Shown piece after piece: positions 2,523 through 54,684 of a stretch of DNA of 64,000 bases. The stretch comes from a virus (Duplodnaviria > Heunggongvirae > Uroviricota > Caudoviricetes): the IMG/VR virus record IMGVR_UViG_3300026484_000600; one strand, given 5' to 3'. The position numbers and the translations under genes were made by a program. Under the pieces are notes generated by a model that worked only from the letters and a program-made list of their open reading frames with translations, was not told the DNA's origin and made no database searches. Numbering within the stretch: the first letter of the stretch is position 1; each line of letters starts with the position of its first letter.

Positions 2523-4020
2523 AAAGTATGATTGATTCAATTTCTTTAATTAAAAAATCTTTATCATCCCATAATTTTGGTATGATTTGAAGCATACTAT
2601 CTGAAAAACCAGCTACTTCAAAAATATCAGATGTTTTTTCAATATCCAATGGTGAACCACCGCCATATCCTTCTAAATTCCAAAATAAAACTTTTACATT
2701 TGGATTGATTTCTTTACGATATGTTTTTAAATAATTTTTGAGTTGGTCACCAATATTACCCCAACTACCATACATTTGCATGTCACTAAAGACCACAATT
2801 TTATCAACATATGTTTTTGTTTTGATTAGTTCTTTTAGTGGAGCAGAAACATCAGTACCACCACCTCTAGTATTTAAATTATTGATAAAATCAAAAGATG
2901 ATAGACCTTTTATATCTCTTCTTGTACATGTATCAGCCCAAGTATAAAACAAACATTTATCATCATTCATACCTACTTTCATAGCAGCTGATAAAACTTT
3001 ACCAATATAAAATGGTGTTTTACGGTCATTACTTGAATAGCCACCCATAGAGCCTGATTCGTCAAGTAAAATAGCCACTTTTTCATCATCGGAAACAATA
3101 TTTGTATTTCCAGCTGAAAGGGCAAATGCTCTTTCAAGTGCCTTTTTAACGATATTCTTCTTAAATTCATCAATAGATAAATCTCTTACTGCATTCCATG
3201 CATCAATAAATCTAAATGGTAATACCATTGATTTTTGTACTCTTTTAGGATCAGTTATAAAATTAGACCAATGTTTTAGGTTATCTTCTGAAATATTACT
3301 TTCCATCAATGTTCTAATATTTTTTAACGCTGCCATATAACCCATTTTACCAGATTTAATTTCTTTCATATACGCTTTAACCCTATCTTCACCAGTTTTA
3401 GAGGCATTGATAGTTTGTGCTGTTTCAACGGCTTTTAATTGGTCTTCAATAACTCTTTTAAAGATAGTTTCATCATCAAAATTTTTAGGTGATGGATGTG
3501 CTAATTTAACTACATCTTTTAATTTCACTTTTGATTTTGGTTGTGCATATTTACGAAATTGATATTCATCAAATTTGGTTTCTAATGCTTTCTTAAAGGC
3601 TCTTCTAAGTGAATTTGGTACCATTTTATTTGGGTTTCTTGTATCCCAGAGTGCTAGCATTTCTGTCATATCATCTGGTCTTACAATAGCTTTTGTTAAT
3701 GCTGGACGTAAAAAATCACTTCCTTTCACATTTTCCGCCAGAATATTAGCCATAAAATGTGAAATGCTTCTAAGTCGACCGTTAGTTCTAGTGAAAACCA
3801 TAGCTTTTGCTACAAATTCAGCATCAGATTTTGATGTAGTAATAAGAGTTTCAATTCTTTTTAAACGTTCGCCTTCTTTTTCATAATATGAATCACCATT
3901 AAGCATAGAGTTTAAAACAACAGTTGCAACTTCTTTTTTTATAGGTCTATCATACGAAACACCCCCAGCCATATTAGTATTAGTTGGAATACTTTTAGTA
4001 CCTTGGTTAAATTTTGCCAT
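2521..4020 (-). CDS. rsr: Ro60-like (TROVE domain + C-terminal vWA/MIDAS) RNA-binding protein, Rsr orthologue
   Basis: The N-terminal region parallels the Ro60 N-terminus (GDSYYEKEGERLKRIETLI vs the human GGTYYIKEQKL..AEALIRLI pattern). The C-terminal vWA has a MIDAS DxSxS motif (LLDESGSMGG). Length 499 aa, typical of bacterial Rsr. Confidence 0.7.
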   Translation of the reverse strand: MAKFNQGTKSIPTNTNMAGGVSYDRPIKKEVATVVLNSMLNGDSYYEKEGERLKRIETLITTSKSDAEFVAKAMVFTRTNGRLRSISHFMANILAENVKGSDFLRPALTKAIVRPDDMTEMLALWDTRNPNKMVPNSLRRAFKKALETKFDEYQFRKYAQPKSKVKLKDVVKLAHPSPKNFDDETIFKRVIEDQLKAVETAQTINASKTGEDRVKAYMKEIKSGKMGYMAALKNIRTLMESNISEDNLKHWSNFITDPKRVQKSMVLPFRFIDAWNAVRDLSIDEFKKNIVKKALERAFALSAGNTNIVSDDEKVAILLDESGSMGGYSSNDRKTPFYIGKVLSAAMKVGMNDDKCLFYTWADTCTRRDIKGLSSFDFINNLNTRGGGTDVSAPLKELIKTKTYVDKIVVFSDMQMYGSWGNIGDQLKNYLKTYRKEINPNVKVLFWNLEGYGGGSPLDIEKTSDIFEVAGFSDSMLQIIPKLWDDKDFLIKEIESIIL

Positions 4021-4869: not shown

Positions 4870-6273
4870 TTAATCATCCTCAATTTTTATTTCAAGCTCT
4901 TTGTCAAAACCTAATTTTTTAAGGTATTGTTTAGCCATTTCTAAACGTCTACATTCAAATTTAACTCTATCTATAACTTGTTTTTCAACTTCTTCAATAT
5001 TTTTACCATTTGCGAAACTCATTATATATGGGAAAGAACCTTTATCATCCTTAAATTTTAATGCTAAATCCTTTTTATTTCCATTCCATGAATTTTTAAA
5101 TTTGGTTTCTGCATCAGACACTATATGATTGACATGATTAACTATAATTTCAGAGATGCTATCAATAAAATCCCGTTCTTCTACATTTTCTTCTGGTATC
5201 ATTGCTATAGTATCATCGATTGTTTCATCTAAAACTTTTTCAACAATTTTATGTTCTTTTAAACCATCAGTTAAAATACCATGTAGTGACATATACCAAT
5301 CAGTTTTTACTTTAGCCATCTTACCATTTTCAAATGTGATTACCCAACCTTCTTTATCTTCAACAGTTTCTTTTAATTTAAGTAACTCATCTAATGTATA
5401 TAAAGGTTCTTGTTCAGCTGTTAATACATTGAATGCTTTTACTAATGTATGATCATATATATTTAGATATAAACCGTCATTATTTTCATCCCGTAGTTGT
5501 AGTAATTTAAGTGATGTTTCAGGATATGATAACACTATCTTATTAAACGGAGAAACTATTTCAAAGATTGCAGCATAGCCAAATTCTAAGGTTGCTAAAA
5601 TAAATGCTTTAAGTTTAGGATCTTTTTCAACTATTTCCATAGCTAATTTACATTGTTCCGCTTCAAATGAAAATTTTGTTTTAGCTACTAATTCTCCTTC
5701 TATTAAAAGAAATCTAATTGCAGAACCATCCTCTTTATTTGCAACTCTCACTATTTCTAAATCTTTTACATCTTCATACATCCAAGAATTTTCAGGCTTC
5801 AATGTTGGTAACACCTTTTTATCTAATGATAAAATCTTAAAAAAGTCTCCGTGAGTCTCGTTGTTTCTATCAAATTCAGCAACAGTCATATTTAATTTTA
5901 AATCTATTGCTCTATACGTTTTATCGTTTTCATCAACAAAAAGTTTATTAATATTACAAATTTCAGAATGATTATTAATAGAAAGTTCCATATTTGTTAT
6001 ATTAGTTCCATTTGTTTGACCAATATTAAAAAATTTATCGATGAATAGATATGTTTTCCAATCGGAATTTTGAGCTTTTACAAATGTTATACCTCTTAAT
6101 TCTGTGGCTCTAACCATAGAACCATCTAATTTTGCATCAAAAAAATCACCTGCATTTGCTAAAAAATAAGTACACATTGCAATTTCTGTATTGCCTATTT
6201 TTTGATGTTTCATTTTGAAAGTTTCATTTATTTTTGTGATTTCTAATACTTCATTGTAAGTTAATAAAGCCAT
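4870..6273 (-). CDS. rnlA: RNA ligase 1 (T4 RnlA family, tRNA repair ligase)
   Basis: ELRGITF and KFFNIGQ match T4 Rnl1 ECRGIMF and KFFNLNE. Nucleotidyltransferase motif I KEDGS (T4 K99 EDGSL). 467 aa. Confidence 0.75.
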   Translation of the reverse strand: MALLTYNEVLEITKINETFKMKHQKIGNTEIAMCTYFLANAGDFFDAKLDGSMVRATELRGITFVKAQNSDWKTYLFIDKFFNIGQTNGTNITNMELSINNHSEICNINKLFVDENDKTYRAIDLKLNMTVAEFDRNNETHGDFFKILSLDKKVLPTLKPENSWMYEDVKDLEIVRVANKEDGSAIRFLLIEGELVAKTKFSFEAEQCKLAMEIVEKDPKLKAFILATLEFGYAAIFEIVSPFNKIVLSYPETSLKLLQLRDENNDGLYLNIYDHTLVKAFNVLTAEQEPLYTLDELLKLKETVEDKEGWVITFENGKMAKVKTDWYMSLHGILTDGLKEHKIVEKVLDETIDDTIAMIPEENVEERDFIDSISEIIVNHVNHIVSDAETKFKNSWNGNKKDLALKFKDDKGSFPYIMSFANGKNIEEVEKQVIDRVKFECRRLEMAKQYLKKLGFDKELEIKIEDD

Positions 6274-8475: not shown

Positions 8476-8917
8476 AGTTGCTCCTTAGTAATTGATTTAT
8501 TTTATTGAATCTATCATTGATTTTTGTAACAATCAAACGTTGGTTTTGAGAAATTGGTGGTATTTCATTTAAATTAAACCATTTCAATTCAAAAACCTCT
8601 CGTTTATCTAATTTAATTCGATTATATAAATATTTATCCCAATGAATAAAGTATAGTTCAATATTTTTCTTTTTATTATTTTGTTTGACGGAAAAATCTA
8701 AATCTTCTTTAGCGATCGATATACCTATTTCTTCCTGAACTTCTCTCAAACAACATTCAATTTTAGTTTCGTTTGGTTCAATTTTTCCTTTAATGAAATC
8801 AAAATTGTCATTTTTTCTAGATGATTTCATTAAAAGAATAGAGACGCCGTTGTTAGATAGTAAATAAGGTATAATTCCAATGGATATAGGTTTCATATGG
8901 TTCACTTTATATAGCAT
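8468..8917 (-). CDS. Nudix hydrolase
   Basis: Nudix box GKIEPNETKIECCLREVQEEIGI (Gx5Ex7REUxEExGU). Confidence 0.7.
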   Translation of the reverse strand: MLYKVNHMKPISIGIIPYLLSNNGVSILLMKSSRKNDNFDFIKGKIEPNETKIECCLREVQEEIGISIAKEDLDFSVKQNNKKKNIELYFIHWDKYLYNRIKLDKREVFELKWFNLNEIPPISQNQRLIVTKINDRFNKINQLLRSNYV

Positions 8918-9185
8918 TATTAGTACGGTTTAATGTTTTGTGCGCAAGTTTTATAAACTCAAATGACACATCATCAGGATGAATTTTAAAACCATATTCA
9001 TCTTCAAATTTTTTAGTCCATAAACTATAATGATTTCTTAATTCCATACCTAAACTAAAATGGTATATTATTAAATCGTTTTCATCGGTATTAATAAAAT
9101 CATTTAGTGGTTTAAAATCTTTAAGGTCATCTGATAGTAGAAGTTTCACAACCTCTACTAAATCTTCTGGAGGATTAGAAATCAT
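8907..9185 (-). CDS. Hypothetical protein
   Basis: 92-aa ORF, operon context. Confidence 0.4.
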   Translation of the reverse strand: MISNPPEDLVEVVKLLLSDDLKDFKPLNDFINTDENDLIIYHFSLGMELRNHYSLWTKKFEDEYGFKIHPDDVSFEFIKLAHKTLNRTNNAI

Positions 9186-10324
9186 TTATATTTCCTAGTA
9201 ATAATTTCCACTTTGTCGTCTGAAAATTGAGTAAGTTTTTCAGTCCAAGTAATAATTCTAGAGCGTTCTACAAATTCATTTTGAGCATAATCCATAGTTC
9301 CTTCAGAAATAGGTTTCAGGTATTTTTCTTTTTTAACTAAAATACCGTATTTAAATTTATCTTCGACTTCTTCCCAATCTTTACCAGTAGTTTCTTTACA
9401 GTATTTGACCTGTTCAAGACCATTTTTTCCTAATAGAGATTTATGAGAACAGTATGTTTGAGCATACATTGATCTAGAGTTCTTCTCAGAATCTCGAATT
9501 CGCCACATGATACTATTAAATGCTTCTTCTTTGGATGATACACCATAAACTCTGGCATCAAACCATGCATTGCCTACTTTTTCTTCCATAGTTTTAATGT
9601 ATTTCATAATATCTGGATTATTGGTATCAATTTCTCTATTTTCTAATTTTTGATCATATTCTTCAAACTTTTTTTCTAAAAAATTAGAAAAATGCTTATT
9701 AAACTGCATAGTAGTATAGGCCGCTATTAAAGAAGTTAATTTCTGAATTCTACCACCAAAAATCTGTTCATTTGTTGTCTCTACTTTTTTAATAATATAT
9801 TTTGATAGTACTTCTAATGATTTAGTTTCTGTTTGTATGTTTCTATTTTGCCAACAACATCGATCTATAATTTCGTCATTAGTATCAGAAACTATCCAAA
9901 AGTTGATACTAAAATATTTATCCTCCGTATCTTCATAAATTATATCTAATGAGCCAAGTAAGTTATACTCTTTATCATAAACTTTATATGATACTTCTTC
10001 TTCATCATTAAGAAAAAATAAATCTTTAACTTCAATAGGTATTAATCTTTCTTTGAATTGAGGAGCAAATACTAATGAAATTTCATCTGATTGTGTGTAA
10101 CCTGTTACTGCTCCAAATTTTTCAACGAGATTTTTGGTTGTTTCTTCCATTGTATTAGATAATATGTCATCAAATGGTTTTTTCATACCTTTTGTGTATT
10201 TACTAAATTTATGACCATCGATTCTACAAATGATAAAATCTCTTGGATCAATTACTGATTCAAATTCTTTTTCATAACCTTTAAGCCTAGTTCCTAAAGA
10301 TTCCTCTCTCATACTTTTTTTCAC
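9182..10324 (-). CDS. Thg1-like protein (tRNA-His guanylyltransferase family, 3'-5' polymerase) with a C-terminal extension
   Basis: The N-terminal 250 aa track Thg1: FIICRIDGHKFSKYTK (the RIDGxxFxxF motif), KPFDD, GYTQSDEISLVF (Thg1 GESDEYSF). 380 aa total, about 130 aa longer than Thg1. Confidence 0.7.
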   Translation of the reverse strand: MKKSMREESLGTRLKGYEKEFESVIDPRDFIICRIDGHKFSKYTKGMKKPFDDILSNTMEETTKNLVEKFGAVTGYTQSDEISLVFAPQFKERLIPIEVKDLFFLNDEEEVSYKVYDKEYNLLGSLDIIYEDTEDKYFSINFWIVSDTNDEIIDRCCWQNRNIQTETKSLEVLSKYIIKKVETTNEQIFGGRIQKLTSLIAAYTTMQFNKHFSNFLEKKFEEYDQKLENREIDTNNPDIMKYIKTMEEKVGNAWFDARVYGVSSKEEAFNSIMWRIRDSEKNSRSMYAQTYCSHKSLLGKNGLEQVKYCKETTGKDWEEVEDKFKYGILVKKEKYLKPISEGTMDYAQNEFVERSRIITWTEKLTQFSDDKVEIITRKYK

Positions 10325-11559: not shown

Positions 11560-12534
11560 TTAATAGATACCTATTTGAGTACGAGTAAGATTTGTTGTTC
11601 CGTTTCTCTTGTAACCAAGACTTTCATATCTACTAATTACATTGGCTACTTTTTGAGCACTATCAATATCAGTTGCAACCATACTAAAAAGTTTAGATTT
11701 GAACCAAGCTTTTCTCTCATCTGGAACATTAAGTGTGCCAAGGTAAATACCCATAATAGTATCTACTTCTTTGTAACTTGCTCCTAGTTGAGCTTCATCA
11801 GTATCATCTTCAGTAACCATAAGACCATCTGATGGTGGTTGGGAAATAATATCTTCTCTAACTCCAAGAGCTTTAGCGATTGCTGGAAGCTCAAAACCCT
11901 TACCAATATTTTGGATTGGTCCAAAGTCACCAACATCACCACAAATAGTCCAAAAACCCATTTGAAATTCTGAAAGGTTGTCTGTTGAAAGTACCATACC
12001 ATTTGTCTTTCTAGCAAGGTCATAAAGAGTAATCATTCTAAGTCTTGCTTTAATATTACCTTCAAGTATATTAGTTGGAAACTCTTTCGTTTTAAACCCC
12101 GCTTTCTCAGCAAGTTTATCGGTCATTGAAACGGTATTAAATACTTCCGACATCATATTAGTAGGGTCATCAAATGCTTCTGCTTCTCCACTTGTAAAGT
12201 AATCTGCATCCCAACTTTTGAATTCTTCAAAAGCCGTACAATAGTTATCTCCAACCCATTGAGCTTGTTCTTTGTGTTCATTACTTGAACTCATTGGAAT
12301 AGATATACCAATTAGAGGTACTCCTGTAAATTCTTCTTGACAAAGTGCTGCAACAACGGCACTATCAAGACCACCACTTACTCCAAGAACAAGTGATTTA
12401 AGGTTGTTCCTTTTAACATAATTTTTAACTTGTGCTCTAATATTTGAAATGACCATATTCGCCTTTTGTGTACTAGGCGTAGTTATTTCGTCTATTTTAG
12501 TTACTAGATCATTAAACGATTTGATATTATTCAT
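11560..12534 (-). CDS. nadE: NH3-dependent NAD+ synthetase
   Basis: PP-loop ATP pyrophosphatase motif LVLGVSGGLDSAVVAALC. Length and overall pattern match NadE. Confidence 0.8.
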   Translation of the reverse strand: MNNIKSFNDLVTKIDEITTPSTQKANMVISNIRAQVKNYVKRNNLKSLVLGVSGGLDSAVVAALCQEEFTGVPLIGISIPMSSSNEHKEQAQWVGDNYCTAFEEFKSWDADYFTSGEAEAFDDPTNMMSEVFNTVSMTDKLAEKAGFKTKEFPTNILEGNIKARLRMITLYDLARKTNGMVLSTDNLSEFQMGFWTICGDVGDFGPIQNIGKGFELPAIAKALGVREDIISQPPSDGLMVTEDDTDEAQLGASYKEVDTIMGIYLGTLNVPDERKAWFKSKLFSMVATDIDSAQKVANVISRYESLGYKRNGTTNLTRTQIGIY

Positions 12535-28209: not shown

Positions 28210-28227
28210 AGGTTTTATGCCTTTATC
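28205..28227. terminator. Bidirectional terminator hairpin between convergent genes
   Basis: gataaagg-ttttatg-cctttatc, a perfect 8-bp stem spanning the + gene stop. Confidence 0.5.
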
Positions 28228-29137
28228 CTAATAATATTATTTTATGTTGATAATCTGAAAGATTTTCTTCTTTCATAATGTCAATAAGTTCGTTTACTGT
28301 ATCTGATTTTTCTACTTCAATTCTACATCCCATCAATTCATAACCAAAATCTGTTGCGATATATTCTTCATATTTTTCAAGAGCTTCGATAACTTGACTA
28401 GCTTTGTGTACTGCCGGAACAATAAAACCGTTATCTTTAAGTATCTGATAAGTTTTTGAAGTATTTTGCCATTTACCATCAGTAGTAAGCCATTCATACG
28501 GTATAAATACTAAATTACTATCATCTTTATTATCCGCAAACATTATTGAATTAACGGCTGATGTAACGGTTTGACCTTTATTCTTTTTTGAAGGATCTTT
28601 AAGAGAAACTACACCTCTAACAGCTATATTTTTCTTAACTGAAATTTCTTGGGGAATAGATGATAAGTCCATCATATTAATAATCATTTCTGCATCATCA
28701 CCATCACCTTTATTAAGTACTCTTACGAGTTTCCCTTTTTCATATTCGCAAGAAATCATAGATCCCTCAATAGCTGGTGTTACTACTAATCCACCTAATA
28801 AACCTTCTTGAAGCCCTTCAAAATGGTCGAATACATTATTTACCCAATCAATAAAACCTGATACATCATCCACCGTATTTTCAATATAAAATGGGTGAGA
28901 GTGTTTAAATTTTTGCTGCATAGCGGAATATTTTAGATAATCAATTGGATAATTTAATTCTAAAATTTGTTCTGCTGCTTTAACAATAACGGCTTCCGGT
29001 GAATATTGTTCATTCCAATCCATTAGTTCTGCTAATTTTTCTTTGATATTTTTATTTGACCATTTGAAAAGCTTAATTTCTTCTGTCATATTTAATTTGT
29101 ATTCAAGATTTTTGAATATGTTTTGAATTACTGCCAT
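28223..29137 (-). CDS. Hypothetical protein (contains a KGDGD element; nucleotidyltransferase identity not established)
   Basis: 304-aa ORF. Only a weak KxDG-like motif. No supporting downstream ligase motifs seen. Confidence 0.4.
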   Translation of the reverse strand: MAVIQNIFKNLEYKLNMTEEIKLFKWSNKNIKEKLAELMDWNEQYSPEAVIVKAAEQILELNYPIDYLKYSAMQQKFKHSHPFYIENTVDDVSGFIDWVNNVFDHFEGLQEGLLGGLVVTPAIEGSMISCEYEKGKLVRVLNKGDGDDAEMIINMMDLSSIPQEISVKKNIAVRGVVSLKDPSKKNKGQTVTSAVNSIMFADNKDDSNLVFIPYEWLTTDGKWQNTSKTYQILKDNGFIVPAVHKASQVIEALEKYEEYIATDFGYELMGCRIEVEKSDTVNELIDIMKEENLSDYQHKIILLG

Positions 29138-32489: not shown

Positions 32490-34667
32490 TTAAATATTAT
32501 TTTTTATGAATTTTTTAAGATTATCTAATGTTAAGGGTTTTGAAAAATAATAACCTTGATAAAAATCACAACCTAATCTATCAAGAATTTCTTTTTGTTT
32601 TGAATTTTCAATTCCTTCCGCTATAATAATAGTGTTGAAAATTTTACTCATTTTAATAATTACTTCAGCCATACTTTTAGAGATATTATCATGTACAATA
32701 TCATCAACAAATGCTTTATCAATCTTTATTTCATCAATAGTTAAATTTTTAACAGATGATAATGATGAGTATCCTGTTCCGAAATCATCAATAGATATTT
32801 TCACTCCTAATTGATGTAACCCATCTATTATTTGTTCCATATGAGTTAAATCCAAAATAAATAGATTTTCGGTTACTTCTAATGTAATATTATGTGGGTT
32901 AATATTAAATTGATTCATTTTATTTTTAATTTTTTGGACAAAACCATCTTCCATAAATTGTTTGATTGAAATATTGATTGAAATATTAAAATCCTTTGGA
33001 ACTATTTTTTTAAATTTATTAATATCATTAAATACATAATCTAAAATATAATCACCCAAAATAATTATATTTTCATTCTTTTCAGCAATTTTAATAAATG
33101 TTTCAGGACTTATTTGACCTAATTTTGAATTGTTCCATCGAACTAATGCTTCTACACCCACTATTTTATTTTTAGTATTTAGTTGTGGTTGATACACCAT
33201 GAATATCTCTTTTAAAATAATACCTTCCAATAATTTATTTTCTATTAAATGTTCTTCTTTAAAGGTTTCTTCTATATTTTTATCATAGAATACAATAGTA
33301 TTTTGTTTTTCTTTTGCTTTATATAAAGCTAAATCAGCTTTATATTTTACACTATGAAGATCTTCAAATCCCTCACATTGTGCAATACCAATACTCATAG
33401 TAGTTTTATGTTCATATTTGAATTTATCATTAGTTATATTTAATAAACTTTTAGCAAAACTTATCACCTTTTCTTTGTTCATTTCTCTAGTAATAATTAT
33501 AAATTCATCTCCACTAAAACGTATCAGCAAATCATCAGAAGAAATATTTTTTTTAAGTTCTGTTGCTATGGAAATCAAGAAATTATCACCGTAATTGTGT
33601 CCAAAGTTATCATTTATAAATTTAAAATTATCTAAATCTAAAAACAACATACTATAATGTTTATAATTGACTATTTTTTTATTTAGGTAATATCTATTTC
33701 CAACGTGTGTTAATGGATCATGAATAGAAATATATTCTAATTCATTTTTTCGTTCATTATTAATTTTATTAATAATGAACATCATTATAATAAAACTTAT
33801 ATTAAAAGCAAACCAAATAGATACTGCATTTATTAACCAATCATTTTTTAAAGAATCTATAATTTTTGAAGGGAACCCTATAACGAGCCATAGATCATAT
33901 CTTTCAATAAATTTTACACCGACCTTATATTTTGTATTATTTAATGATGTAGTGGTTAATGATATTTGATTTGTTTTTTTAAATAAATTATGTACATCGA
34001 TTTTTATAATAGAATCTATTTTAAAATCATTAATATTTGAATATTGAATTCTAGAGGAATTATTTTTAATTAATAAAATTATAGAATCATTGTGTATTTT
34101 ATTTGTAAATAAATTAGAAAATGACTTATTTATATTAATATCTACTGCAAGTACACCATACACTTTTGAATTTTTCCTAATACTTTTTCTTATTGGGATT
34201 ATTAGTTGGTTTGTTGGTCTAAATAAATATGAACGTCCTAAAATTGATGACTTGCATTTTAACGTTTTAAGAAATGACTCTTTAGTTTTTGGATTGGAGA
34301 TAAAATTAGGTATCTTTTTTACATCAACATTCGACGAATTTATTAATATGTCTCCATCGGGCGATATAAAACCATACCCTACTGCATCAGGTTCCAATTC
34401 TAACGCCATATTCAAATATTTTTGCTTATTGGGATAGGTTAAAATATTATTTCCTAACATTGTAAGTATGTTATTATATTTGTTAAATACATCTTCGGAT
34501 GCAATAGACAAAATACTTAGTTCGTGAAGAATCTTATTATCAATTTCATCCATAATATCTTTATTATTTGATTTATAACTAAAATAAAATATAATAGAAG
34601 TAGATATAATAACAAAAGCGATAACTAATAAACTTCCTAATTTTTCTAAAAAATATTTAATATTCAT
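32490..34667 (-). CDS. Membrane sensor protein with GGDEF (degenerate SGDEF) and EAL domains (c-di-GMP phosphodiesterase, possibly also cyclase)
   Basis: N-terminal TM, a periplasmic-like region and a second TM. The GGDEF region carries LFLDLDNFKFINDNFGH and RFSGDEFIII. The EAL domain carries YQPQ, EALVRW, DDFGTGYSSL and KIDKAFV signatures. Confidence 0.75.
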   Translation of the reverse strand: MNIKYFLEKLGSLLVIAFVIISTSIIFYFSYKSNNKDIMDEIDNKILHELSILSIASEDVFNKYNNILTMLGNNILTYPNKQKYLNMALELEPDAVGYGFISPDGDILINSSNVDVKKIPNFISNPKTKESFLKTLKCKSSILGRSYLFRPTNQLIIPIRKSIRKNSKVYGVLAVDININKSFSNLFTNKIHNDSIILLIKNNSSRIQYSNINDFKIDSIIKIDVHNLFKKTNQISLTTTSLNNTKYKVGVKFIERYDLWLVIGFPSKIIDSLKNDWLINAVSIWFAFNISFIIMMFIINKINNERKNELEYISIHDPLTHVGNRYYLNKKIVNYKHYSMLFLDLDNFKFINDNFGHNYGDNFLISIATELKKNISSDDLLIRFSGDEFIIITREMNKEKVISFAKSLLNITNDKFKYEHKTTMSIGIAQCEGFEDLHSVKYKADLALYKAKEKQNTIVFYDKNIEETFKEEHLIENKLLEGIILKEIFMVYQPQLNTKNKIVGVEALVRWNNSKLGQISPETFIKIAEKNENIIILGDYILDYVFNDINKFKKIVPKDFNISINISIKQFMEDGFVQKIKNKMNQFNINPHNITLEVTENLFILDLTHMEQIIDGLHQLGVKISIDDFGTGYSSLSSVKNLTIDEIKIDKAFVDDIVHDNISKSMAEVIIKMSKIFNTIIIAEGIENSKQKEILDRLGCDFYQGYYFSKPLTLDNLKKFIKNNI

Positions 34668-34704: not shown

Positions 34705-35223
34705 TTAAATAAATAATTGGGGGTTTACAAATGAAAAATTTTTAGTATTTAGTTGCATAATTTTATCGTCATATTCAAATAAAAATTCTTGTGGGTTTTT
34801 AATATAATACCAAATCCCCAACCAATAAATATCATTTAAAATTTGTGTTTGGAATTGTTCAATATAGGTACTACCATATTTATTAGATTGTCGTAATTTA
34901 CTAAAATATATAGCAGCTTTAAATTCTATATAATTTTTTGGGCGAATCTGATTTATCATTTCAACTGCAGACATTACTTCTTCATCAAAGTCTTCTGAAG
35001 TTAAGTGATTATTTTTTATAAGTGTCCATAAAATAAATCCAAGATCATTTTTTAGTGATTTAATATTTGATTCTTTAATGTCAAACCCAAATTTCATGGG
35101 CATTTTGAATTCTTGACCTATTAAATATTCAAATCCTTGTATATTTTTTAATTGATTTAACTCATTTTTGGTTTTTTTCAGTTCATGTTCTAATAGCTGA
35201 TATTCAAATTTACTCACACTCAT
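34705..35223 (-). CDS. Hypothetical protein
   Basis: 172-aa ORF overlapping the SAH gene by 14 nt. Confidence 0.4.
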   Translation of the reverse strand: MSVSKFEYQLLEHELKKTKNELNQLKNIQGFEYLIGQEFKMPMKFGFDIKESNIKSLKNDLGFILWTLIKNNHLTSEDFDEEVMSAVEMINQIRPKNYIEFKAAIYFSKLRQSNKYGSTYIEQFQTQILNDIYWLGIWYYIKNPQEFLFEYDDKIMQLNTKNFSFVNPQLFI

Positions 35224-35734
35224 TTTTTTGAAACTCCATACATGCGTTTTCTATCTCATTTATAATTTTTAATTGTCGTTCGGTTATATCGGGGCGATTT
35301 TTTTTAAGAAAATCCATCATATTTAATGTTTTTTTAACATATGATATCCCTGGTTTATCTAAAATATTTGAAAGTCGATCTATTAATTTTATTATAAAAG
35401 CATATTTAGACATTTTAATCATTTTTTGTTTTAAGTATTCATTCTTACCCAATTGTTTGATTGCTATAGGATCTGATGTTAATTCCACAACTATTGATGC
35501 TACTAAGGGACCAAATTCTCGTTCTAATTCAGAATATGTACACTCCGTATCTTCTAAAACATCATGTAGTAAACCAGCACATTGTAATTCATCTAACTTT
35601 TTAGAACCATTTTTATATTTAGCAATAAGTTGAGATACGATAATTGGGTGTGTTACGTAGGGTAATCCAGAACCTCTCCGTTCTTGACCTTTGTGCTTTT
35701 CAGCTGCAAATTGTATGGCTTTAATAACTAACAT
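35210..35734 (-). CDS. Small alarmone hydrolase (RelA/SpoT-type HD-domain (p)ppGpp hydrolase)
   Basis: AIQFAAEKHKGQERRGSGLPYVTHPIIVSQLI...AGLLHDVLEDT aligns with the SpoT hydrolase-domain core (AHEGQTRSSGEPYITHP...AALLHDVIEDT). 174 aa, hydrolase-only. Confidence 0.7.
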   Translation of the reverse strand: MLVIKAIQFAAEKHKGQERRGSGLPYVTHPIIVSQLIAKYKNGSKKLDELQCAGLLHDVLEDTECTYSELEREFGPLVASIVVELTSDPIAIKQLGKNEYLKQKMIKMSKYAFIIKLIDRLSNILDKPGISYVKKTLNMMDFLKKNRPDITERQLKIINEIENACMEFQKNECE

Positions 35735-35974: not shown

Positions 35975-36129
35975 TTAAATAAATAACTCAGGATTACTAT
36001 TTAATAAGTGTTCTTCAAAACGTTTAAGTAATTTATTATTCATAATTTTATTATACAATTAACTAAATTAATAAAAAATACCTTTTTATACTATAAATAA
36101 TATAGTAATAAAGAAGATAGGAAATAATT

Positions 36130-37866
36130 ATGAAAATAAAAGATATATTGGATATATTTTATCCTAATGGACTTGATAGACCCTATAACAAGAATGTATT
36201 GAGAAAACAACCAGAATTAAAACAAATATTAATTAAGAAAACTGATTTTTTAAAAAAGGAAGCGACTATTTCAGAACGTCTTTATGTTTTAAGACATAAT
36301 ATTTGTGTATCGCCAATATGTCTTGAGTGTGGATCACCAGTAAAATTCAAAAGTCCTAAAGAAGGTTATGCAAAATTCTGTTCTAAGAAATGTACTTCAA
36401 AATCATCAATAACTAAAATAAAAAGAAATAATACGTTTAACGAAAAATATGGTGGTATTGGTTTTGGGTCAAAAGAAATTTTAGATAAAGTATATGAAAC
36501 CAATTTAGATAGATTTGGGACATCTATTCCACAACAAACAAATATAATAAAAGATAAAATTAAAAATTCCTGGAAGGATTTAGATAAAGAAATTATTTTA
36601 AAAAAGAGAAGAGAAACTAACTTAGAAAAATACGGGACAGAATATCATCAACAGAATAGTGACCAAAAAGAAAAATTACTTAAATCAATGATTAAAAATA
36701 ATGGTGGTATTGGTCTTTCTTCAGATAAAATCAAATCTAAAGTTAAAGCGACAATGCAAAAAAAATATGGTGTAGACAATCCCATGCAGTCGGATAAAAT
36801 CAAATCTAAAGTTAAAGCGACAATGCAAAAAAAATATGGTGTGGATAATTACAAAGAATTAGATAATGATGCATGGAATAATTTTAAAAAATATTTTGAT
36901 CCAGAAACATTTCAATTAGACTTATCTTTGCAAGAAATGGAAGAAAAATATCAAGTGCGATATTACACCATATCTAATTTTTTGCAGAAGTATGGTTTTG
37001 AATTTTCAAAAATATCATCATATGAACAATCATTACGTAATATATTACCTGATGATTTTGAATTTAATAACCGAACAATTTTAGATGGTAGAGAACTAGA
37101 TTTTTATTCAAAAAGTCGAAATTTAGCTATTGAATTTAACGGACTTTTATATCATTCTGAAAAATATGGAAAAGACAAGAATTATCATAAATCAAAGACG
37201 GATGGATGTATATCTAAGGATATATCATTGATACACATATTTGAAAATGAATGGTTGTTTAAACGTAATATCGTAGAATCTATAATTAATACCAAGTTGA
37301 ATAATTTTTCTCATAGAATTTATGCTAGAAAATGTCAAATTAAAGAACTCGATACCAAGATTAAAAATGATTTTTTAGAAGAAAATCATATTCAAGGAAA
37401 AGATAGCTCCAAAGTAAAATTAGGATTATTTTATGAGGGTGATTTAGTACAAGTTATGACATTTGGTCATTCTCGATTTAATAAAAAATATCAATATGAA
37501 ATGCATAGATCTTGTTCAAGAATTGGTTATCAAATAATCGGCGGATTAAATAAATTGTGGTCATACTTCATTAAAAATTATAAACCTAAATCTGTTGTTA
37601 CGTATGCTGATAGAAGATATTTTGATGGGAGGAGTTATTTAAAATTAGGGTTTAATTTTTCTCATACCTCACCATCTAATTTTTGGATATTTGGTCCTGG
37701 TATAAAAGGTGTTGATTCAAGATTAAATTGGCAAAAACACAAGCAGAAAGATAAATTAAAAAAGTTTGACCCAACTTTAACAGCATGGGAAAATATGATT
37801 GATAATGGTTATAATAGAATATGGGATAGTGGGAATAATGTATATATTTGGAAAGCGGAAGAGTAA
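36130..37866 (+). CDS. Putative free-standing homing-endonuclease-like protein (Zn-ribbon, tandem KYG repeats, C-terminal Vsr/DUF559-like PD-(D/E)XK domain)
   Basis: N-terminal CLECGSPVKF...FCSKKC. Repeated KYGG/KYGV modules, including an exact 23-aa duplication. A C-terminal RELDFYSKSRNLAIEFNGLLYHSE motif (the DF...AIEFNG..H endonuclease signature). Convergent with and abutting the intein-bearing gp41 gene. Confidence 0.45.
   Translation: MKIKDILDIFYPNGLDRPYNKNVLRKQPELKQILIKKTDFLKKEATISERLYVLRHNICVSPICLECGSPVKFKSPKEGYAKFCSKKCTSKSSITKIKRNNTFNEKYGGIGFGSKEILDKVYETNLDRFGTSIPQQTNIIKDKIKNSWKDLDKEIILKKRRETNLEKYGTEYHQQNSDQKEKLLKSMIKNNGGIGLSSDKIKSKVKATMQKKYGVDNPMQSDKIKSKVKATMQKKYGVDNYKELDNDAWNNFKKYFDPETFQLDLSLQEMEEKYQVRYYTISNFLQKYGFEFSKISSYEQSLRNILPDDFEFNNRTILDGRELDFYSKSRNLAIEFNGLLYHSEKYGKDKNYHKSKTDGCISKDISLIHIFENEWLFKRNIVESIINTKLNNFSHRIYARKCQIKELDTKIKNDFLEENHIQGKDSSKVKLGLFYEGDLVQVMTFGHSRFNKKYQYEMHRSCSRIGYQIIGGLNKLWSYFIKNYKPKSVVTYADRRYFDGRSYLKLGFNFSHTSPSNFWIFGPGIKGVDSRLNWQKHKQKDKLKKFDPTLTAWENMIDNGYNRIWDSGNNVYIWKAEE
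36721..36858. repeat. 69-nt direct tandem repeat (2 copies) inside the homing-endonuclease-like gene
   Basis: gataaaatcaaatctaaagttaaagcgacaatgcaaaaaaaatatggtgt occurs twice with a 69-nt period. It encodes SDKIKSKVKATMQKKYGVDN twice. Confidence 0.75.
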
Positions 37867-37877
37867 TCTACTCTTCC
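37857..37877. terminator. Perfect 9-bp hairpin spanning both stop codons of convergent genes
   Basis: ggaagagta-atc-tactcttcc. The + gene stop TAA and the - gene stop (CTA on +) both lie inside the stem. Confidence 0.4.
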
Positions 37878-39289
37878 TTCGATGTAATTAATTTATCGCC
37901 AACTTTAAGTGAAGCCATAATACAGTCTTCCACTATTTTTCCATCATCTAAGACTTTTGGAAAAATATGTCTTCCAGACACTTTGATAGTTTTTCCACTT
38001 TTTAAAGTGATTTCATATACTTCTTGTTCTTCTGGTTCAGTAACGGCTGTTACAGTTCTAAATTCATTATTAGTTCCAAGAACTTTATCACCTACATTGA
38101 TTTCTTCAATATTTATTTTACCGCTTGGGGTTGTTACTTTTTCTCCAAATGCTAGACATCGGTTGTATTGGTCTGCCGTCCATACAATAGTGTCAAAGAG
38201 TGTTGCTACAGCTCTTAATTCTTCAGATACATATTTATCTTTTTCAAACATTCCCTGCCAATTTTTCCCATTTGGTGTCATTAGACCCGCATAATCTAGA
38301 ATAATAATAGGGACAGTATTATATTTTTGTAGATAATTTCTTACAAATAATTCCAATTTCATTGCACTTAGTGTATTGGGTTGATAAAAATGAACGGTAA
38401 ATCTACCATAGCCTTTATTATCACATTTCTTTAGATGATTATAAATTTCCATTTCAGATTTTTCAATTTGGTGTGTTGGTATTTTAGTCGAATGTGTTAT
38501 ATATCTTTTCATGATTTTTTCTTCTTTTAGTTCCAACGAAATATATATAACATCTCTTTTCATTTGGATATAATTCCATGCTAAATTTATTAATCCTATT
38601 GATTTACCACCGCCTGATTTAGCTAGTAAATAATTTAAACTAGGAATTGTTACACCTCCATCTAATTTATCATCTACGTTCCACCATCCAGTAGGAATTG
38701 TAGCTTCAGTTGATGTCAGCATTTTAAATAAATCTCGAAAATTATCTTTATCAGTATCTATGGTTACACCTAGTTTTGTATCGATATCAACATTTACTGC
38801 TTCTTTAATTTTCTTTTCAATAGTTCCATAATCTTCTTCTTCTAAAAGCTCGATACTATCTTCGATTGCACCTTTCATACTCATATTTTTTATAAATGCA
38901 TTTAGATAATCTTCAAGATATTCTGTTGGCCAAGGTTTATTTATATCTAACCAGTCATCATGCACATTATCTAAGTTTAACTCTAATAATATAGCATCTT
39001 CTGGAGGAATACTTTTATATAAATCATAATAATCGATCATGAAATCAACTATTAATTTATTGATTTTTGACTCAAAAAAATCTTTATCTAAAAATGTTAT
39101 ACCCTTAACAAATAACTCTGGATTATTAATAAGTTGAGCAAGTAAAACCCGTTCTTTATCTTCAATATCTAATAGTTTACCTTCCGAACGTTCAACATTC
39201 TTTTTTTTCTTTTTCTTTTTCGATGATGATTCTGCTTCTAATTCGGCTAAAGCGTCTTCATATTCTGTATCATCTATTTGCTCATCCAT
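37868..39289 (-). CDS. gp41/DnaB-family replicative helicase whose ORF terminates in a 96-aa split-intein N-fragment
   Basis: DnaB motifs IPTGWWNVDDKLDGG, Walker A LAKSGGGKSIGL and the arginine-finger region DQYNR. Then CLAFGEKVTTPSGKINIEEINVGDKV (intein block A, Cys1) and a SGRHIFP block-B-like segment, followed by a stop. No C-extein follows. Confidence 0.75.
   Translation of the reverse strand: MDEQIDDTEYEDALAELEAESSSKKKKKKKNVERSEGKLLDIEDKERVLLAQLINNPELFVKGITFLDKDFFESKINKLIVDFMIDYYDLYKSIPPEDAILLELNLDNVHDDWLDINKPWPTEYLEDYLNAFIKNMSMKGAIEDSIELLEEEDYGTIEKKIKEAVNVDIDTKLGVTIDTDKDNFRDLFKMLTSTEATIPTGWWNVDDKLDGGVTIPSLNYLLAKSGGGKSIGLINLAWNYIQMKRDVIYISLELKEEKIMKRYITHSTKIPTHQIEKSEMEIYNHLKKCDNKGYGRFTVHFYQPNTLSAMKLELFVRNYLQKYNTVPIIILDYAGLMTPNGKNWQGMFEKDKYVSEELRAVATLFDTIVWTADQYNRCLAFGEKVTTPSGKINIEEINVGDKVLGTNNEFRTVTAVTEPEEQEVYEITLKSGKTIKVSGRHIFPKVLDDGKIVEDCIMASLKVGDKLITSKEE
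37871..38158 (-). mobile_element. Split-intein IntN (blocks A and B) at the end of the gp41/DnaB gene
   Basis: 96 aa starting with Cys directly after the helicase QYNR motif. The gene ends without blocks F/G or a C-extein. Confidence 0.6.
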
Positions 39290-39345: not shown

Positions 39346-39876
39346 ATGAAACAATTAATACAATTAAAACAAAAAAATATAAAAGAATTAAAAGAAAAAT
39401 TATGGTTGGAAAATAATAAAATCTGTCCATTATTAGGAATTGAGGTTGAACTTGATAAAATGGTGTTAGATCATATTCATAAATTAAAAAATGAAGAATG
39501 TTCTGAACAAAAAGGAACGATTAGGAATGCTTTAGAGTTCAGAGCGAATGCAATGGAAGGAAAAATCACGAATAATTGGAAAAGGTATTTTGGTTCAAAT
39601 GAAACTAATCACCCAATTAGTTTACCAGATTTTTTACGAAATTTAGCAGATTATTTAGAAGCTGGAGCATATCAAGATAAAGAAGGGAATTTTTATATAC
39701 ATCCTTCAGAAGAACCAAAAGCTCAAAAAGTATCTAAACGAAATTATAATAAATTAAAAAAAGAATATGATTTGAGTGGTCGAAAGAAAAAATTTCCTGA
39801 ATTTCCAAAGTCAGGAAAATTAACAGTAGGATTAAAGGCTCTATTTGAAGAATTCAGCATAGAGCCTTATAATTGA
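39346..39876 (+). CDS. Recombination endonuclease VII (T4 gp49 family, Holliday junction resolvase)
   Basis: NKICPLLGIEVELDKMVLDHIHKL...KGTIRNALEFRANAMEG parallels T4 EndoVII GKCLICQREL...LDHDHEL...VRGLLCNLCNAAEG. Start chosen at the internal ATG (MKQLIQL) to avoid overlap with the DnaB gene start. Confidence 0.6.
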   Translation: MKQLIQLKQKNIKELKEKLWLENNKICPLLGIEVELDKMVLDHIHKLKNEECSEQKGTIRNALEFRANAMEGKITNNWKRYFGSNETNHPISLPDFLRNLADYLEAGAYQDKEGNFYIHPSEEPKAQKVSKRNYNKLKKEYDLSGRKKKFPEFPKSGKLTVGLKALFEEFSIEPYN

Positions 39877-41994: not shown

Positions 41995-42414
41995 ATGGAA
42001 GAAATAGAATTAACTTTTGAACAATTATTTAAAATAATATCATTAGAAGAAAATATTGCGTTTCGTAGAGATGAAGAATATTTTCAACAAACACCAATAC
42101 AGATTCAAAATGAATATGGTGAGTGGATTGATATAAAAGGTCTTATTGTAAAAGAAGATAATTTAATAAAATTAGAAATTAATGCGACAGAGTATATAAT
42201 AACTACTGACAATCATATTTTGATGCTTGATGACCACACCTTAAAAAAGGTCAATAAATTGTCTATAGGTGATAGATTATATAATATTGATGAAAATCAT
42301 ATGGCTGTAGTTACAAATATAGAGAATTTGTATGAACAGGGCTTATTATATGATGTTGAAGTTGATTCTGAAAATCATTTATATCAAATAGCAAATGGTA
42401 CCATTCATCACAAT
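41995..42414 (+). mobile_element. Long IntC of an atypically split intein
   Basis: 140 aa ending ...NGTIHHN|T. It complements the 28-aa IntN at 23945-24028. The reconstituted junction reads GAGK-T (Walker A). Confidence 0.65.
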
Positions 42415-43404
42415 ACGTTATTAACGTCGGCTATTGTTAAATATGCCAATAAACTAAATATGAAAACGATTGTTATTGTTCCATCATCATCATTATTAAA
42501 GCAAACTTATGATTATATAAAACAATTTGATATTCCAGTTGGTATGTTTGGTAGTGGTAAAAAAGATGATGAAGTTAATATTGTGGCTACCTGGCAAACG
42601 TTACAAAATAATAAACATTTTATTCGTGATTTTGAATGTGTTATATGGGATGAGTGTCATAATGCCAAAGCGTATGTAGCTCAACAAATTATGAATGAAG
42701 CAAAAAATTCATATCTTCGAATAGGTTTGACTGGTACCGTGCCGAAAGATCCATTAGATAAAGCTAATTTAACAGCTGGTTTTGGACCAGTAGTTTATGA
42801 TATAAAAGCTCATGAATTACAAAAGAGAAACATATTATCTTCAATAGATATTAATATTTTTGAACTAGTTTATCCTAAAGAATATTTGGGTTCATTTATT
42901 GATTGGCATGAAGAAACTGTTTTTTTACAAAGTAATGAAATGTTTCAAAAATTAATGAAAGCAATTGTTGACTCATTAGAGGGTAATACATTGATATTAA
43001 TGAAGAATATAGATCCAGCTGAGGATTTATCAGAATTTTTAGAGTGTGAATATATTAGCTCGAAATTATCCGTTAATAAAAGACAGGAAAAATTTAATGA
43101 ATTTGTTTATGGTGGTAATTTAATAACTGTTGGTACATATTCATTACTTAGTACTGGAATTGATATTGTTCATATTAATAATTTAATTCTTGCACCAACA
43201 CCTGGCAAAAGTTTTACTAAAGTTATACAATCGATTGGTAGGGGTCTTAGAAGAAAGGAGGGACAAAAAGAGCATGTTACTGTAATCGATATGACATCCA
43301 ATTTGAAATATGATAAAAAACATATAAAAGCTAGAAAAGATTTTTATAAAGAGGCTCAATATCCATTTGAAGTTGAAAAGATAGAATTAAAAAACTTTAA
43401 ATAA
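41995..43404 (+). CDS. uvsW: Split-intein C-fragment (about 140 aa, blocks B/F/G ending HHN) fused to the C-extein of the UvsW-like SF2 helicase
   Basis: The N-terminus carries TDNH (block B), LLYDVEVDSENHLYQIANG (block F) and IHHN (block G). After +1 Thr the sequence is TLLTSAIVKYANK...IVIVPSS (motif Ia), VIWDECHNA (motif II), LTGT (III), LLSTGIDIV (V) and QSIGRGLRR (VI). It aligns with T4 UvsW. Confidence 0.75.
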   Translation: MEEIELTFEQLFKIISLEENIAFRRDEEYFQQTPIQIQNEYGEWIDIKGLIVKEDNLIKLEINATEYIITTDNHILMLDDHTLKKVNKLSIGDRLYNIDENHMAVVTNIENLYEQGLLYDVEVDSENHLYQIANGTIHHNTLLTSAIVKYANKLNMKTIVIVPSSSLLKQTYDYIKQFDIPVGMFGSGKKDDEVNIVATWQTLQNNKHFIRDFECVIWDECHNAKAYVAQQIMNEAKNSYLRIGLTGTVPKDPLDKANLTAGFGPVVYDIKAHELQKRNILSSIDINIFELVYPKEYLGSFIDWHEETVFLQSNEMFQKLMKAIVDSLEGNTLILMKNIDPAEDLSEFLECEYISSKLSVNKRQEKFNEFVYGGNLITVGTYSLLSTGIDIVHINNLILAPTPGKSFTKVIQSIGRGLRRKEGQKEHVTVIDMTSNLKYDKKHIKARKDFYKEAQYPFEVEKIELKNFK

Positions 43405-53310: not shown

Positions 53311-54684
53311 TTATTTGGCAAATTTCTTTTTGACTTCTTTTAGTTCATTTATAAAAATATTTTTTTGAAGATCTACATCATCTATAATTTTGTTATATTC
53401 TGTATTTTGTTCTTCTAATTCAGCAATTTTTGTTTTAGCTTTATCATATTCTTCTTCTGTAAATCTATAAACTGGTAAAGATGCGATATATTCTATATCA
53501 ACAACATCGATACTTTCAATAAATTTTATTAAATCTGCTTTATTTTTAATATTTTTAGCTTGTCCACCTAAATTATTATCGATTGCCAAAACTATATCAT
53601 TTAATCTACTAATTTCTGCTAGATTTAGTTGTATAAATCGTTCATATCTTCTTGGAAAAAAGCTCAATCTCCATTCTGTATAATCTTTAATAAATTGTGC
53701 AGCATCATCATATTCTACTACGGCTTTAGATTCTTCTGAATCTAAAACAATTATTCTTTCAGTCATTCCTGCAGAAAGTTTTAATTTTCTTGCAGCAAAC
53801 TCACCATTTTTATTTTTAAGAGCTGCACGTTTAAAGTTTACTGTTATGTCAATATCAGTTTTAGATTTATCTGTGTAGTCAACAATTTGCCCTTTATCAA
53901 CCATTTTCGCTAATGATTCAACAACCTTAGCATGTGTCATCCCAAATGGCAATTTAGTAATTTTTGCACTACTAGTATCAATAATTTCACACTCACCTAA
54001 GAATGTATATTTATTAGGGTTATCCTCATGTCGAATAGCCCAGTTATCAATGGGTTTAGAGTATGGTAAAGGATTATCAATCTTTTGACCTTTTAATACT
54101 TTTATTTGTCTATCAATTACGTCTTTAGGGTCTCTAGGTAAAATCGTTGTAGAATAACCTGTGGCAATACCCTGAATACCATTCAATAATAGAAGAGGAA
54201 TTAATGGAAGTAGTAACGTTGGTTCCATATCCGTTTCATCATATGTTGGTTGTAATTCTACAATCTCCCAATCTTTAAATATTACTTCTTTTGCAAATGA
54301 ACTAAATTTCGCTGATACATATCTTGGACTACCAAATGCTGTTGGATTAATTCTTGTTCCAAATGCACCATGACCATCAAAAAATGAAATATTATTACAG
54401 TATGGTCCAGCCATCTGATTTATTGAATCTGCTATTGAAGCGTCACCGTGTGGGTGAATACTCATAACTTGACCGGTTAGTTTTGCAACTTTTTCATATT
54501 TGCTAGTTCCTCTTAATTGCCAAAGACATCTTTGTTGAACAGGTTTCATTCCATTAAAGAAAGGTATTGCTCTTTGCTGTAATGTATAAATTGCAAAACT
54601 TCTATGTTCTGCTTCAAGATAGGAACTTACTTTTTCACTACCTATATTTTCTATTATTTCTGGTACATTAAAAATTTCACTCAC
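53311..54684 (-). CDS. DNA topoisomerase II medium subunit (T4 gp52 / GyrA-ParC N-terminal breakage-reunion domain)
   Basis: NGMKPVQQRCLW matches gp52 DGFKPVQRFVI. FFDGHGAFGTR...PRYVSAKFS...LLLNGIQGIATGYSTTILPR matches gp52 LLDGQGNFGSR...SRYIFARVS...VLLNGVSGIATGYATYILPH. 457 aa. Confidence 0.8.
   Translation of the reverse strand: MSEIFNVPEIIENIGSEKVSSYLEAEHRSFAIYTLQQRAIPFFNGMKPVQQRCLWQLRGTSKYEKVAKLTGQVMSIHPHGDASIADSINQMAGPYCNNISFFDGHGAFGTRINPTAFGSPRYVSAKFSSFAKEVIFKDWEIVELQPTYDETDMEPTLLLPLIPLLLLNGIQGIATGYSTTILPRDPKDVIDRQIKVLKGQKIDNPLPYSKPIDNWAIRHEDNPNKYTFLGECEIIDTSSAKITKLPFGMTHAKVVESLAKMVDKGQIVDYTDKSKTDIDITVNFKRAALKNKNGEFAARKLKLSAGMTERIIVLDSEESKAVVEYDDAAQFIKDYTEWRLSFFPRRYERFIQLNLAEISRLNDIVLAIDNNLGGQAKNIKNKADLIKFIESIDVVDIEYIASLPVYRFTEEEYDKAKTKIAELEEQNTEYNKIIDDVDLQKNIFINELKEVKKKFAK

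Follow-up and report, generated by a model that had tools for sequence, protein, structure and literature searches.

Split inteins seldom occur in nature and are valued for protein ligation. The published junctions of two that reside in gp41-type helicases read LNR/SAY for gp41-8 and SGY/SSS for gp41-1 (PMC7090010 supplement; a slash marks a splice junction here and below), and both inteins splice very fast (PMC11168065). In the published layout of fractured genes, the N-half, an endonuclease and the C-half are contiguous and co-directional (Dassa et al. 2009, PMC2677866). Here we analyze a 64,000-nt stretch of DNA (the window) from IMG/VR record IMGVR_UViG_3300026484_000600, which derives from an uncultivated phage of the Caudoviricetes with 27% G+C. 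Its open reading frame (ORF) 37868..39289, on the minus strand, encodes 473 amino acids (aa) that begin as a gp41/DnaB-type replicative helicase and end in the N-terminal fragment of a split intein (IntN). From sequence comparison we consider it probable that the phage makes its replicative helicase in two pieces joined through the split intein, with a remote partner gene for the C-terminal intein fragment (IntC) and the C-extein, and that an endonuclease gene beside the helicase gene is a later insertion. The gene itself encodes a true split-intein N-fragment on a gp41-type helicase, kept by selection, and its parts are as follows.

38159..39289, minus strand: N-extein, gp41/DnaB-type replicative helicase, aa 1-377 (Pfam, PHROG, AlphaFold/Foldseek)
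37871..38158, minus strand: IntN, 96-aa N-fragment of a class-1 split intein, aa 378-473 (blocks A and B, intein matches)
37868..37870, minus strand: stop codon TAG of the N-fragment gene (equivalent stop position in relatives)

The N-extein carries an N-terminal helical domain, a Walker A motif (AKSGGGKS), a Walker B motif (IIILDYAG) and the sequence QYNR. It matches PHROG 19, 'DnaB-like replicative helicase', over aa 32-377 (E=3e-46) and Pfam DnaB_C over aa 198-377 (E=4.8e-14), the latter covering only profile positions 2-180 of 255; the Pfam match to the DnaB N-domain is weak (E=0.02). An AlphaFold model built on 14 relatives (mean predicted local distance difference test score, pLDDT, 64) retrieved the T4 gp41 structures 8GAO (E=3.8e-15) and 8DTP as its top Foldseek matches, followed by DnaB helicases. 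The ATPase core is incomplete in the ORF: its last part, with the C-terminal DNA-binding loop and the arginine-finger region, is absent, as expected for a piece that needs completion. Also absent is a GGISK...K.R segment that all full-length relatives keep.

The helicase-intein junction reads ...WTADQYNR/CLAFGEKVTTPSGK...KVSGRHIFPK...LKVGDKLITSKEE-stop. Cys378, directly after QYNR, is the first intein residue (block A), and block B is S438-G-R-H441, an S-x-x-H motif that aligns with SEEH of gp41-1 and SANH of gp41-8. The ORF stops at the canonical split point, 9-10 aa past LKVGDKL, and blocks F and G are absent. Five Pfam HINT/intein families match aa 374-471 with E values from 8e-6 to 6e-2, all below the gathering score, as expected for half a domain. 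Among solved structures, the closest sequence is the cyanophage-like gp41-1 intein 6QAZ (E=9e-7), and the intein-like domain 2LWY also matches (E=1e-4). In global alignment the IntN is 40% identical to that of gp41-8 and 39% to that of gp41-1, with the C-termini in register. Since the intein directly follows xNR in the window as it does in gp41-8 (xNR/S), the window intein occupies the gp41-8 site. The same site holds a contiguous mini-intein in P0065, P0071, P0072 and P0074, where it runs ..NR/C...THN followed by S or C (P0065 and P0072 read INR/C...THN/SG). It is free of any intein in P0055-P0059, where the sequence runs QFNR/SGAGENDDVSEENIQGG (QFNR/SGAGEN.. or QFNR/TGLGD..).

These results bear out most of what a sequence-only reading of the window had proposed for this gene. 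It had called the protein a gp41/DnaB helicase, in agreement with 8GAO and 8DTP as the best structures at E values of about 1e-15, and had described its end as a 96-aa split-intein N-fragment with blocks A and B that stops 1 nt from a convergent neighbor. That description is confirmed: a single base (37867) lies between the N-fragment stop codon and the stop of the convergent ORF 36130..37866. Its estimate that about 70 aa of the helicase C-terminus are missing fits the conserved core; intein-free relatives extend about 100 aa beyond the junction position. A promoter and terminator scan around the junction gave background levels only.

The truncated form of the gene is widely conserved. An identical protein is present in JGI, ENA and Logan assemblies, and 34 more clusters (P0002-P0035) have the same length, 50-84% identity and 91-100% query coverage, all of them stopping within a few residues past LKVGDKL. 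The sequence-only reading had held open that a frameshift or sequencing error hides a contiguous intein with its C-extein. We found no point in support of such an error, or of a misassembly, and we regard its probability as practically negligible: the protein is identical in independent assemblies, the stop is shared by relatives, and a six-frame profile search of the window found no frame past the stop with similarity to inteins or helicases. Moreover, the DNA past the stop is an opposite-strand endonuclease gene in the window and an unrelated 62-aa gene in the closest large relative, the 224,467-bp IMG/VR contig 3300026521_000471 (locus L016), whose N-fragment is 94% identical overall and 99% identical in the extein.

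Selection also acts on both parts of the protein. In comparisons among the window, L016 and L003, Nei-Gojobori ratios of non-synonymous to synonymous divergence (dN/dS) were 0.01-0.11 for the extein and 0.16-0.28 for the IntN, values that are rough because the synonymous divergence (dS) of 0.7-2.4 is near saturation. By these ratios, the extein and the IntN are nevertheless both clearly constrained. C378, S438 and H441 do not vary in an alignment of 14 relatives, and in three diverged alleles (P0026, P0029 and P0053) Ser replaces Cys at intein position 1.

The 473-aa product would pair through its IntN with a separately encoded IntC-C-extein protein, and protein trans-splicing would then link ...ADQYNR to S... 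and yield a full-length gp41-like helicase. One could instead propose that the intein halves associate without splicing and serve as a dimerization module, a proposal with which the Ser1 alleles would agree and which sequence cannot separate from splicing. Phage Aeh1 NrdA, split by a mobile endonuclease, reportedly reassembles non-covalently. We consider such non-splicing association unlikely here, since the residues for the N-terminal splicing steps are all conserved, candidate partners (below) keep the terminal HN and Ser+1, and the close homologues gp41-1 and gp41-8 are very fast splicers. Ser1 inteins are known to be active.

The partner gene for trans-splicing would have to lie far away. 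Within the 64-kb window, five C-extein/IntC queries reached at best E=0.11 in tblastn, hmmsearch --max with C-extein and IntC/C-extein profiles gave at most 7.7 bits over all six-frame segments, and an HN[CST] regular expression returned only chance matches in the open frames. The 10 kb past each window end (L124, L126 and L127) hold no IntC or helicase C-terminus, and there is no C-half within 10 kb of the N-fragment in the relatives L003, L006 and L016. The claim of the sequence-only reading that the C-half is missing from the adjacent DNA is therefore upheld by the window and the 10 kb on each side. A partner gene would accordingly be expected beyond the 25-38 kb on either side within the window and the 10 kb further.

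Beyond this region, a distinct class of C-fragments was recovered from IMG/VR by pattern scans, run with two sets of peptide patterns and two degenerate DNA patterns made by hand. The class was first seen in L013 and L015 and reads MILDEIVNIEKIGIEKTIDIEVDGDHLFYCNGILTHN/SAAGDVADVSEENIQGGISKIQAADNVIGFIP...KTRDSSGVG..., the candidate pattern being IntC ...ILTHN/SAAGDV..EENIQGGISK with the terminal HN and the Ser+1 nucleophile kept. The most likely partner would thus resemble MILDEIVNIEKIGIEKTIDIEVDGDHLFYCNGILTHN/SAAGDVADVSEENIQGGISKIQAADN...KTRDS... The small IntC ORF that the sequence-only reading had suggested seeking has no counterpart in the window or the 10 kb beyond; a fitting class does exist elsewhere, in the same samples.

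Several lines of evidence connect the two classes. Among split exteins, the L015-like one lies closest to the intein-free P0055-59, and the same holds for the window N-extein; the L015-class junction SAAGDVADVSEENIQGG aligns without gaps to SGAGENDDVSEENIQGG of P0056. In GenBank phages, the L015 C-extein has matches in 15 records only, namely the PA5oct-like Pseudomonas jumbo phages, Atu_ph07, Vibrio 2.275.O and Phosso, and these phages rank among the top matches of the window N-extein. In PA5oct, the alignments of the N-extein (146959-148026) and the C-extein (147937-148161) abut in one gene. When the window IntN was joined in silico to the L015 IntC, the Intein_splicing profile scored 42.2 bits (cut-off 35.8) vs 26.1 for the IntN alone. 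The DnaB_C match of the in-silico spliced helicase still ends at 182, a result that is uninformative because this family is too diverged from the profile at its C-terminus.

The two classes also occur together. The N-lineage is represented in IMG/VR by one contig only, 3300026521_000471, from the same metagenome as the L015 contig 3300026521_000003 (Ga0256828_1000001, 289,880 bp), and a metagenome scan found co-occurrences of both classes in Ga02568xx samples among the matches listed. P0036, a relative built from three pieces (below), and the C-fragment piece P0286 have both samples in common (ERZ27262662 and 3300026544). We conclude that the L015-like class is the likely partner, judging by sequence and by its co-occurrence with the N-lineage in the same samples; a link between the two within one genome can be inferred at most.

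Some observations weigh against a two-piece helicase with a remote partner. The partner was not found in the ~84 kb searched directly, and among the matches listed the peptide and DNA pattern scans show no L015-like C-fragment on the 224-kb contig _000471, although these scans are fragile, since they need an exact match to degenerate motifs and miss an intron-broken gene such as that of L136 or L223. Among the L015-like proteins, only P0241 shares the source set of P0001 (jgi, lgn, ena). The near-saturated dS given above belongs here as well. Other searches also returned no connection. A search with the L015-like C-fragment protein gave 49 matches, none on the 221,509-bp JGI contig. A broad C-fragment profile gave 2417 matches in the protein collection, mostly of the gp41-8-like lineage, and none of the 120 listed was tied to an N-lineage contig. 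A profile search of the representative library with cluster look-up gave no link to the window's contig.

Genome scans of GTDB found no member of the N-lineage. For the C-lineage, they found only a 2.7-kb scaffold in a metagenome-assembled genome (MAG) from Guaymas; the other listed matches were weak or IntC-only, mostly in Chloroflexota MAGs. The Guaymas Basin scaffold, L225 (QMNM01000334.1), carries an L015-like C-fragment of 72% identity within a MAG assigned to Cloacimonadota. It hints at a hydrothermal-sediment habitat, and its binning in Cloacimonadota is probably spurious.

The failure to find a partner in 84 kb, or by pattern scans on the relative's 224-kb contig among the matches listed, also speaks for a pseudogene, i.e. 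a decaying remnant in a phage that would use a host or other helicase and for which no partner exists, which is what the sequence-only reading had said a genome lacking any IntC would imply. We consider this very unlikely and contradicted by the conservation and purifying selection: the gene is intact in about 35 diverged relatives with the same split point, dN/dS lies far under 1, the Cys1/Ser1 and S-x-x-H residues are retained, and a matching C-fragment class co-occurs in the same samples.

Where the two halves would lie with respect to each other can be addressed through the large contigs. Probes for the N-lineage (four peptide patterns and the neighboring 126-aa gene) matched only _000471, and probes for the C-class matched only _000003 and two other contigs, so that either large contig carries a single half. 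In tetranucleotide composition, the L015 contig and the window correlate at 0.993-0.995, vs 0.988-0.997 among window thirds and flanks and 0.90-0.987 for other relatives and AT-rich phages of the same project. Common repeated 13-mers were tried as a genome signature, and none was usable. We can tentatively refine the two-piece reading by supposing that one genome of >500 kb was assembled as N-bearing (221-262 kb) and C-bearing (141-306 kb) contigs, with the partner more than 75 kb off. The presence of one half on each of _000471 and _000003, their common metagenome and matching tetranucleotide composition, and the GGDEF/EAL and FliM/FliN/FliG homologues carried by both groups agree with such a genome. 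However, no contig bridges the halves, and in tblastx comparisons the flanks of the N and C loci have no genes in common past domain-level GGDEF/EAL and FliN similarity; a similar composition is also found in phages of one host, and a genome of >500 kb would be exceptional.

The complementary halves on large contigs and their co-occurrence in samples would equally suit two replicons, whether co-infecting phages, a phage and its satellite, or a bipartite genome, both needed for a working helicase. Fragmented assembly is the simpler account, and we are not aware of any essential phage replication protein whose parts are divided among replicons; we hold this arrangement to be very improbable. In the most far-reaching form, the halves would reside on molecules of ~224 kb and ~290 kb whose co-presence trans-splicing enforces, or one >500-kb genome would hold the gene in 2-3 dispersed pieces with two split-intein types and a group I intron. 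This appears quite unlikely to us; interest in the locus would be much higher if the halves did sit on separate molecules or in one genome of >500 kb.

The gene that abuts the IntN end, and the segment that contains it, are as follows.

36130..37866, plus strand: free-standing homing-endonuclease gene, 578 aa (PHROG, Pfam)
35975..37904, no strand assigned: window-specific segment relative to L016 (blastn), made up of the endonuclease gene, the 155 bp upstream of it and the final ~12 IntN codons, which do not align

Two PHROG families recognize the protein, 3339 'homing endonuclease' (E=3e-115) and 559 'HNH endonuclease' (E=3e-92), and it has no sequence match among solved structures. Its layout comprises a Zn-ribbon with DNA-binding 'KYG' repeats (DUF7487, Pfam E=5e-16), a Vsr/DUF559-like segment whose Vsr-related DUF559 match is weak (E=0.06), and a Mom-like C-terminal part. 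The gene is absent from L016 and is thus an insertion polymorphism: segment 35975..37904 is replaced there by 34 nt, between blastn blocks that align window 45431-37905 with L016 3896-11384 and window 35974-29000 with L016 11419-18366. In L016 the stop codon of the N-fragment overlaps with the start (ATG) of the 62-aa gene, which in the window lies beyond the endonuclease. Because the gene is split in L016 as well, the split is independent of this endonuclease copy.

Divergence between the window and L016 is concentrated around the insertion. Nucleotide identity is 88-96% in the extein, 75-78% and then 64% in the IntN beside the endonuclease, and 92% just beyond it; at the protein level the IntN is 73% identical vs 99% for the extein, with dS of 1.09 vs 0.74. 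This pattern suggests co-conversion in endonuclease homing or an exchange of intein alleles. In the mechanism that we propose, the endonuclease would be a later mobile insertion flush with the 3′ end of the IntN; it would not be what keeps the gene split, and would probably have introduced or sped the divergence of the adjoining intein sequence by co-conversion. The presence or absence of an endonuclease at the broken end, together with the raised local divergence, bears on the proposed endonuclease-driven breakage of intein genes.

The sequence-only reading had identified this neighbor as homing-endonuclease-like, which the PHROG 3339 match substantiates, and had likened the locus to fractured-gene arrangements. 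The likeness extends to an endonuclease at the broken end; it stops at the opposite strand, at the lack of a C-half behind the endonuclease, and at the absence of the endonuclease from L016. Fractured-gene endonucleases are of the GIY-YIG or Vsr-like family, and on the Vsr side the window protein shows the weak DUF559 match given above. A related endonuclease is found at the other broken end, in two loci with an IntC-C-extein gene:

L223 6994-8391 and L224 640-2037, minus strand: 465-aa DUF7487 endonuclease (Pfam E=2.8e-55) with a weak phage endonuclease I-like end

In L223 and L224 this gene is encoded on the other strand, immediately upstream of the IntC-C-extein gene, and it is absent from that position in L015 and L013. 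Its Zn-ribbon and KYG-repeat module recurs in the window endonuclease (27% identity across the DNA-binding part, E=3e-11). With endonucleases at the IntN end and at the IntC end, both broken helicase ends attract such elements.

Directly upstream of the helicase gene and divergent from it, a 176-aa protein of endonuclease VII/HNH type (PHROG 423, E=7e-25) is encoded at 39346-39876 on the plus strand. This gene is conserved in L016 and is therefore probably core and not mobile.

Introns and further inteins have also entered this helicase gene. The C-fragment genes of L136, L220, L223 (~8750-9400) and L224 are interrupted after the ...HN/SAAG codons by an insert of ~350-640 bp without a long ORF, and in L136 the insert (575-923) matches the group I intron family RF00028 (E=1.7e-7; 37 bits against an Rfam gathering score of 50). 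The short proteins P0268, P0270 and P0274 (MRRLLKDSRNQ-GISKIQ...) point to a probable second site of interruption, within the GGISK motif. P0420 (298 aa, JGI) consists of an IntC, a 14-aa extein SFNTSSPGMESVAE and a second complete intein where GG.SK is expected, and so marks another intein site. Mobile elements concentrate in this helicase gene.

Some relatives are fractured twice. P0036-P0053 are middle fragments, with a ~155-aa IntC ending HHN/S after the P-loop, a middle extein and the same type of IntN; P0054 is a matching first piece that ends GGGK/CLSFQTLINIKVSRELYEKMLMV with a ~23-aa IntN. Together these indicate that some relatives build the helicase from three non-adjacent pieces with two kinds of split intein; locus L006 10001-11218 is one such three-piece relative.

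A second fractured helicase had likewise been announced by the sequence-only reading, and the window does contain one:

41995..43404, plus strand: C-fragment of a second fractured helicase, UvsW/ResIII-type (Pfam ResIII E=1.6e-12, Helicase_C E=9.5e-9)

This IntC-led ORF begins with a long IntC of ~140 aa (41995-42414) that ends NGTIHHN/T just after the P-loop; Intein_splicing matches aa 103-140 at profile positions 120-155 of 155. By tblastn it is homologous to the long IntC of the gp41 middle fragments, and in the three-piece gp41 relatives and the UvsW-like ORF alike the IntC measures about 140-155 aa. A matching N-fragment for the UvsW-like helicase was not found in the window; the expected IntN would be a short one of about 23 aa. 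The window's two fractured helicases therefore represent different kinds of split intein, canonical with a long IntN and atypical with a long IntC, and the two pairs might be orthogonal within one genome. A LigA-like ORF at 28223..29137 (304 aa) was considered as a third fractured gene and rejected, because it has no intein signature.

The surroundings hold auxiliary genes and no structural genes among the window ORFs checked against family libraries:

window 1349-1624, 2521-4020, 4870-6273, 9182-10324, 11560-12534 and 53311-54684, and L124 7900-9525: auxiliary genes typical of very large phages

The auxiliary set comprises Cpn10, Cpn60, TROVE/Ro, T4-type RNA ligase, Thg1, NAD synthase, NAPRTase, a topoisomerase IV-type subunit, Acb1 and PhoH-PIN. 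Downstream of the endonuclease lie the 62-aa ORF, an HD-domain gene and a GGDEF/EAL gene. Signalling and motility genes of bacterial type are found in the window at 32490-34667 and 35210-35734, both on the minus strand, and in L003, L006, L124, L126, L129 and L131; across the phage and its relatives the set includes GGDEF/EAL proteins, HD phosphohydrolases, response regulators with HD-GYP, MCP and FliM/FliN/FliG homologues.

Compared with described systems, the window IntN is closest in position to gp41-8, from the Global Ocean Sampling (GOS) metagenome (Dassa et al. 2009, PMC2677866). The two have the same type of host protein and the same insertion point after xNR, and both are split at the canonical point, the IntN of ~88-96 aa finishing after LKVGD. 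They differ in sequence, with only 40% identity between the IntN; in lineage, since the gp41-8-like group (P0061-P0120, P0065) belongs to another helicase clade with ~30% identity to the window helicase; and in layout, since the gp41-8 locus has the endonuclease and the C-half directly next on the same strand, whereas the C-half of the window gene is remote. The window IntN shares its split point with gp41-1 (PDB 6QAZ/6RIZ), but that intein is inserted three residues further downstream in the helicase (SGY/SSS) and is hosted by T4-like cyanophages. The split-intein class is already known, and the window gene adds a new allele at the gp41-8 site, carried by a large, AT-rich phage that is uncultivated; the lineage would offer a new gp41-8-site pair that is ~40% identical to the characterized ones.

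AceL-TerL and VidaL are atypically split inteins with a short IntN and a long IntC. The terminase intein of Dassa et al. (2009), with its 122-aa C-part, likewise combines a short IntN with a long IntC (PMC2677866). The UvsW-like ORF 41995..43404 and the P-loop split of the three-piece gp41 relatives resemble this atypical kind; gene 37868..39289 differs from it in that its split is canonical.

Contiguous fractured genes are matched in part. A DUF7487-type endonuclease abuts the IntC end in L223 and L224, and in fractured genes the endonuclease stands at the break. In the window, however, the endonuclease is convergent and missing from the nearest relative, the next genes are unrelated, and the C-half would be at least tens of kb off. 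In cyanobacterial DnaE (Ssp/Npu), the halves of an essential replication protein are likewise encoded at distant, separate loci and joined by trans-splicing (PMC2677866), although the host protein is different and cellular rather than phage-borne, and the similarity of the window IntN is marginal (1ZD7, E=0.38). The dispersed halves and the polymorphic convergent endonuclease are variations on known themes, and the locus suggests that an essential helicase gene can persist in a phage as far-apart pieces, an organization that resembles cyanobacterial DnaE and not the contiguous 'fractured genes'.

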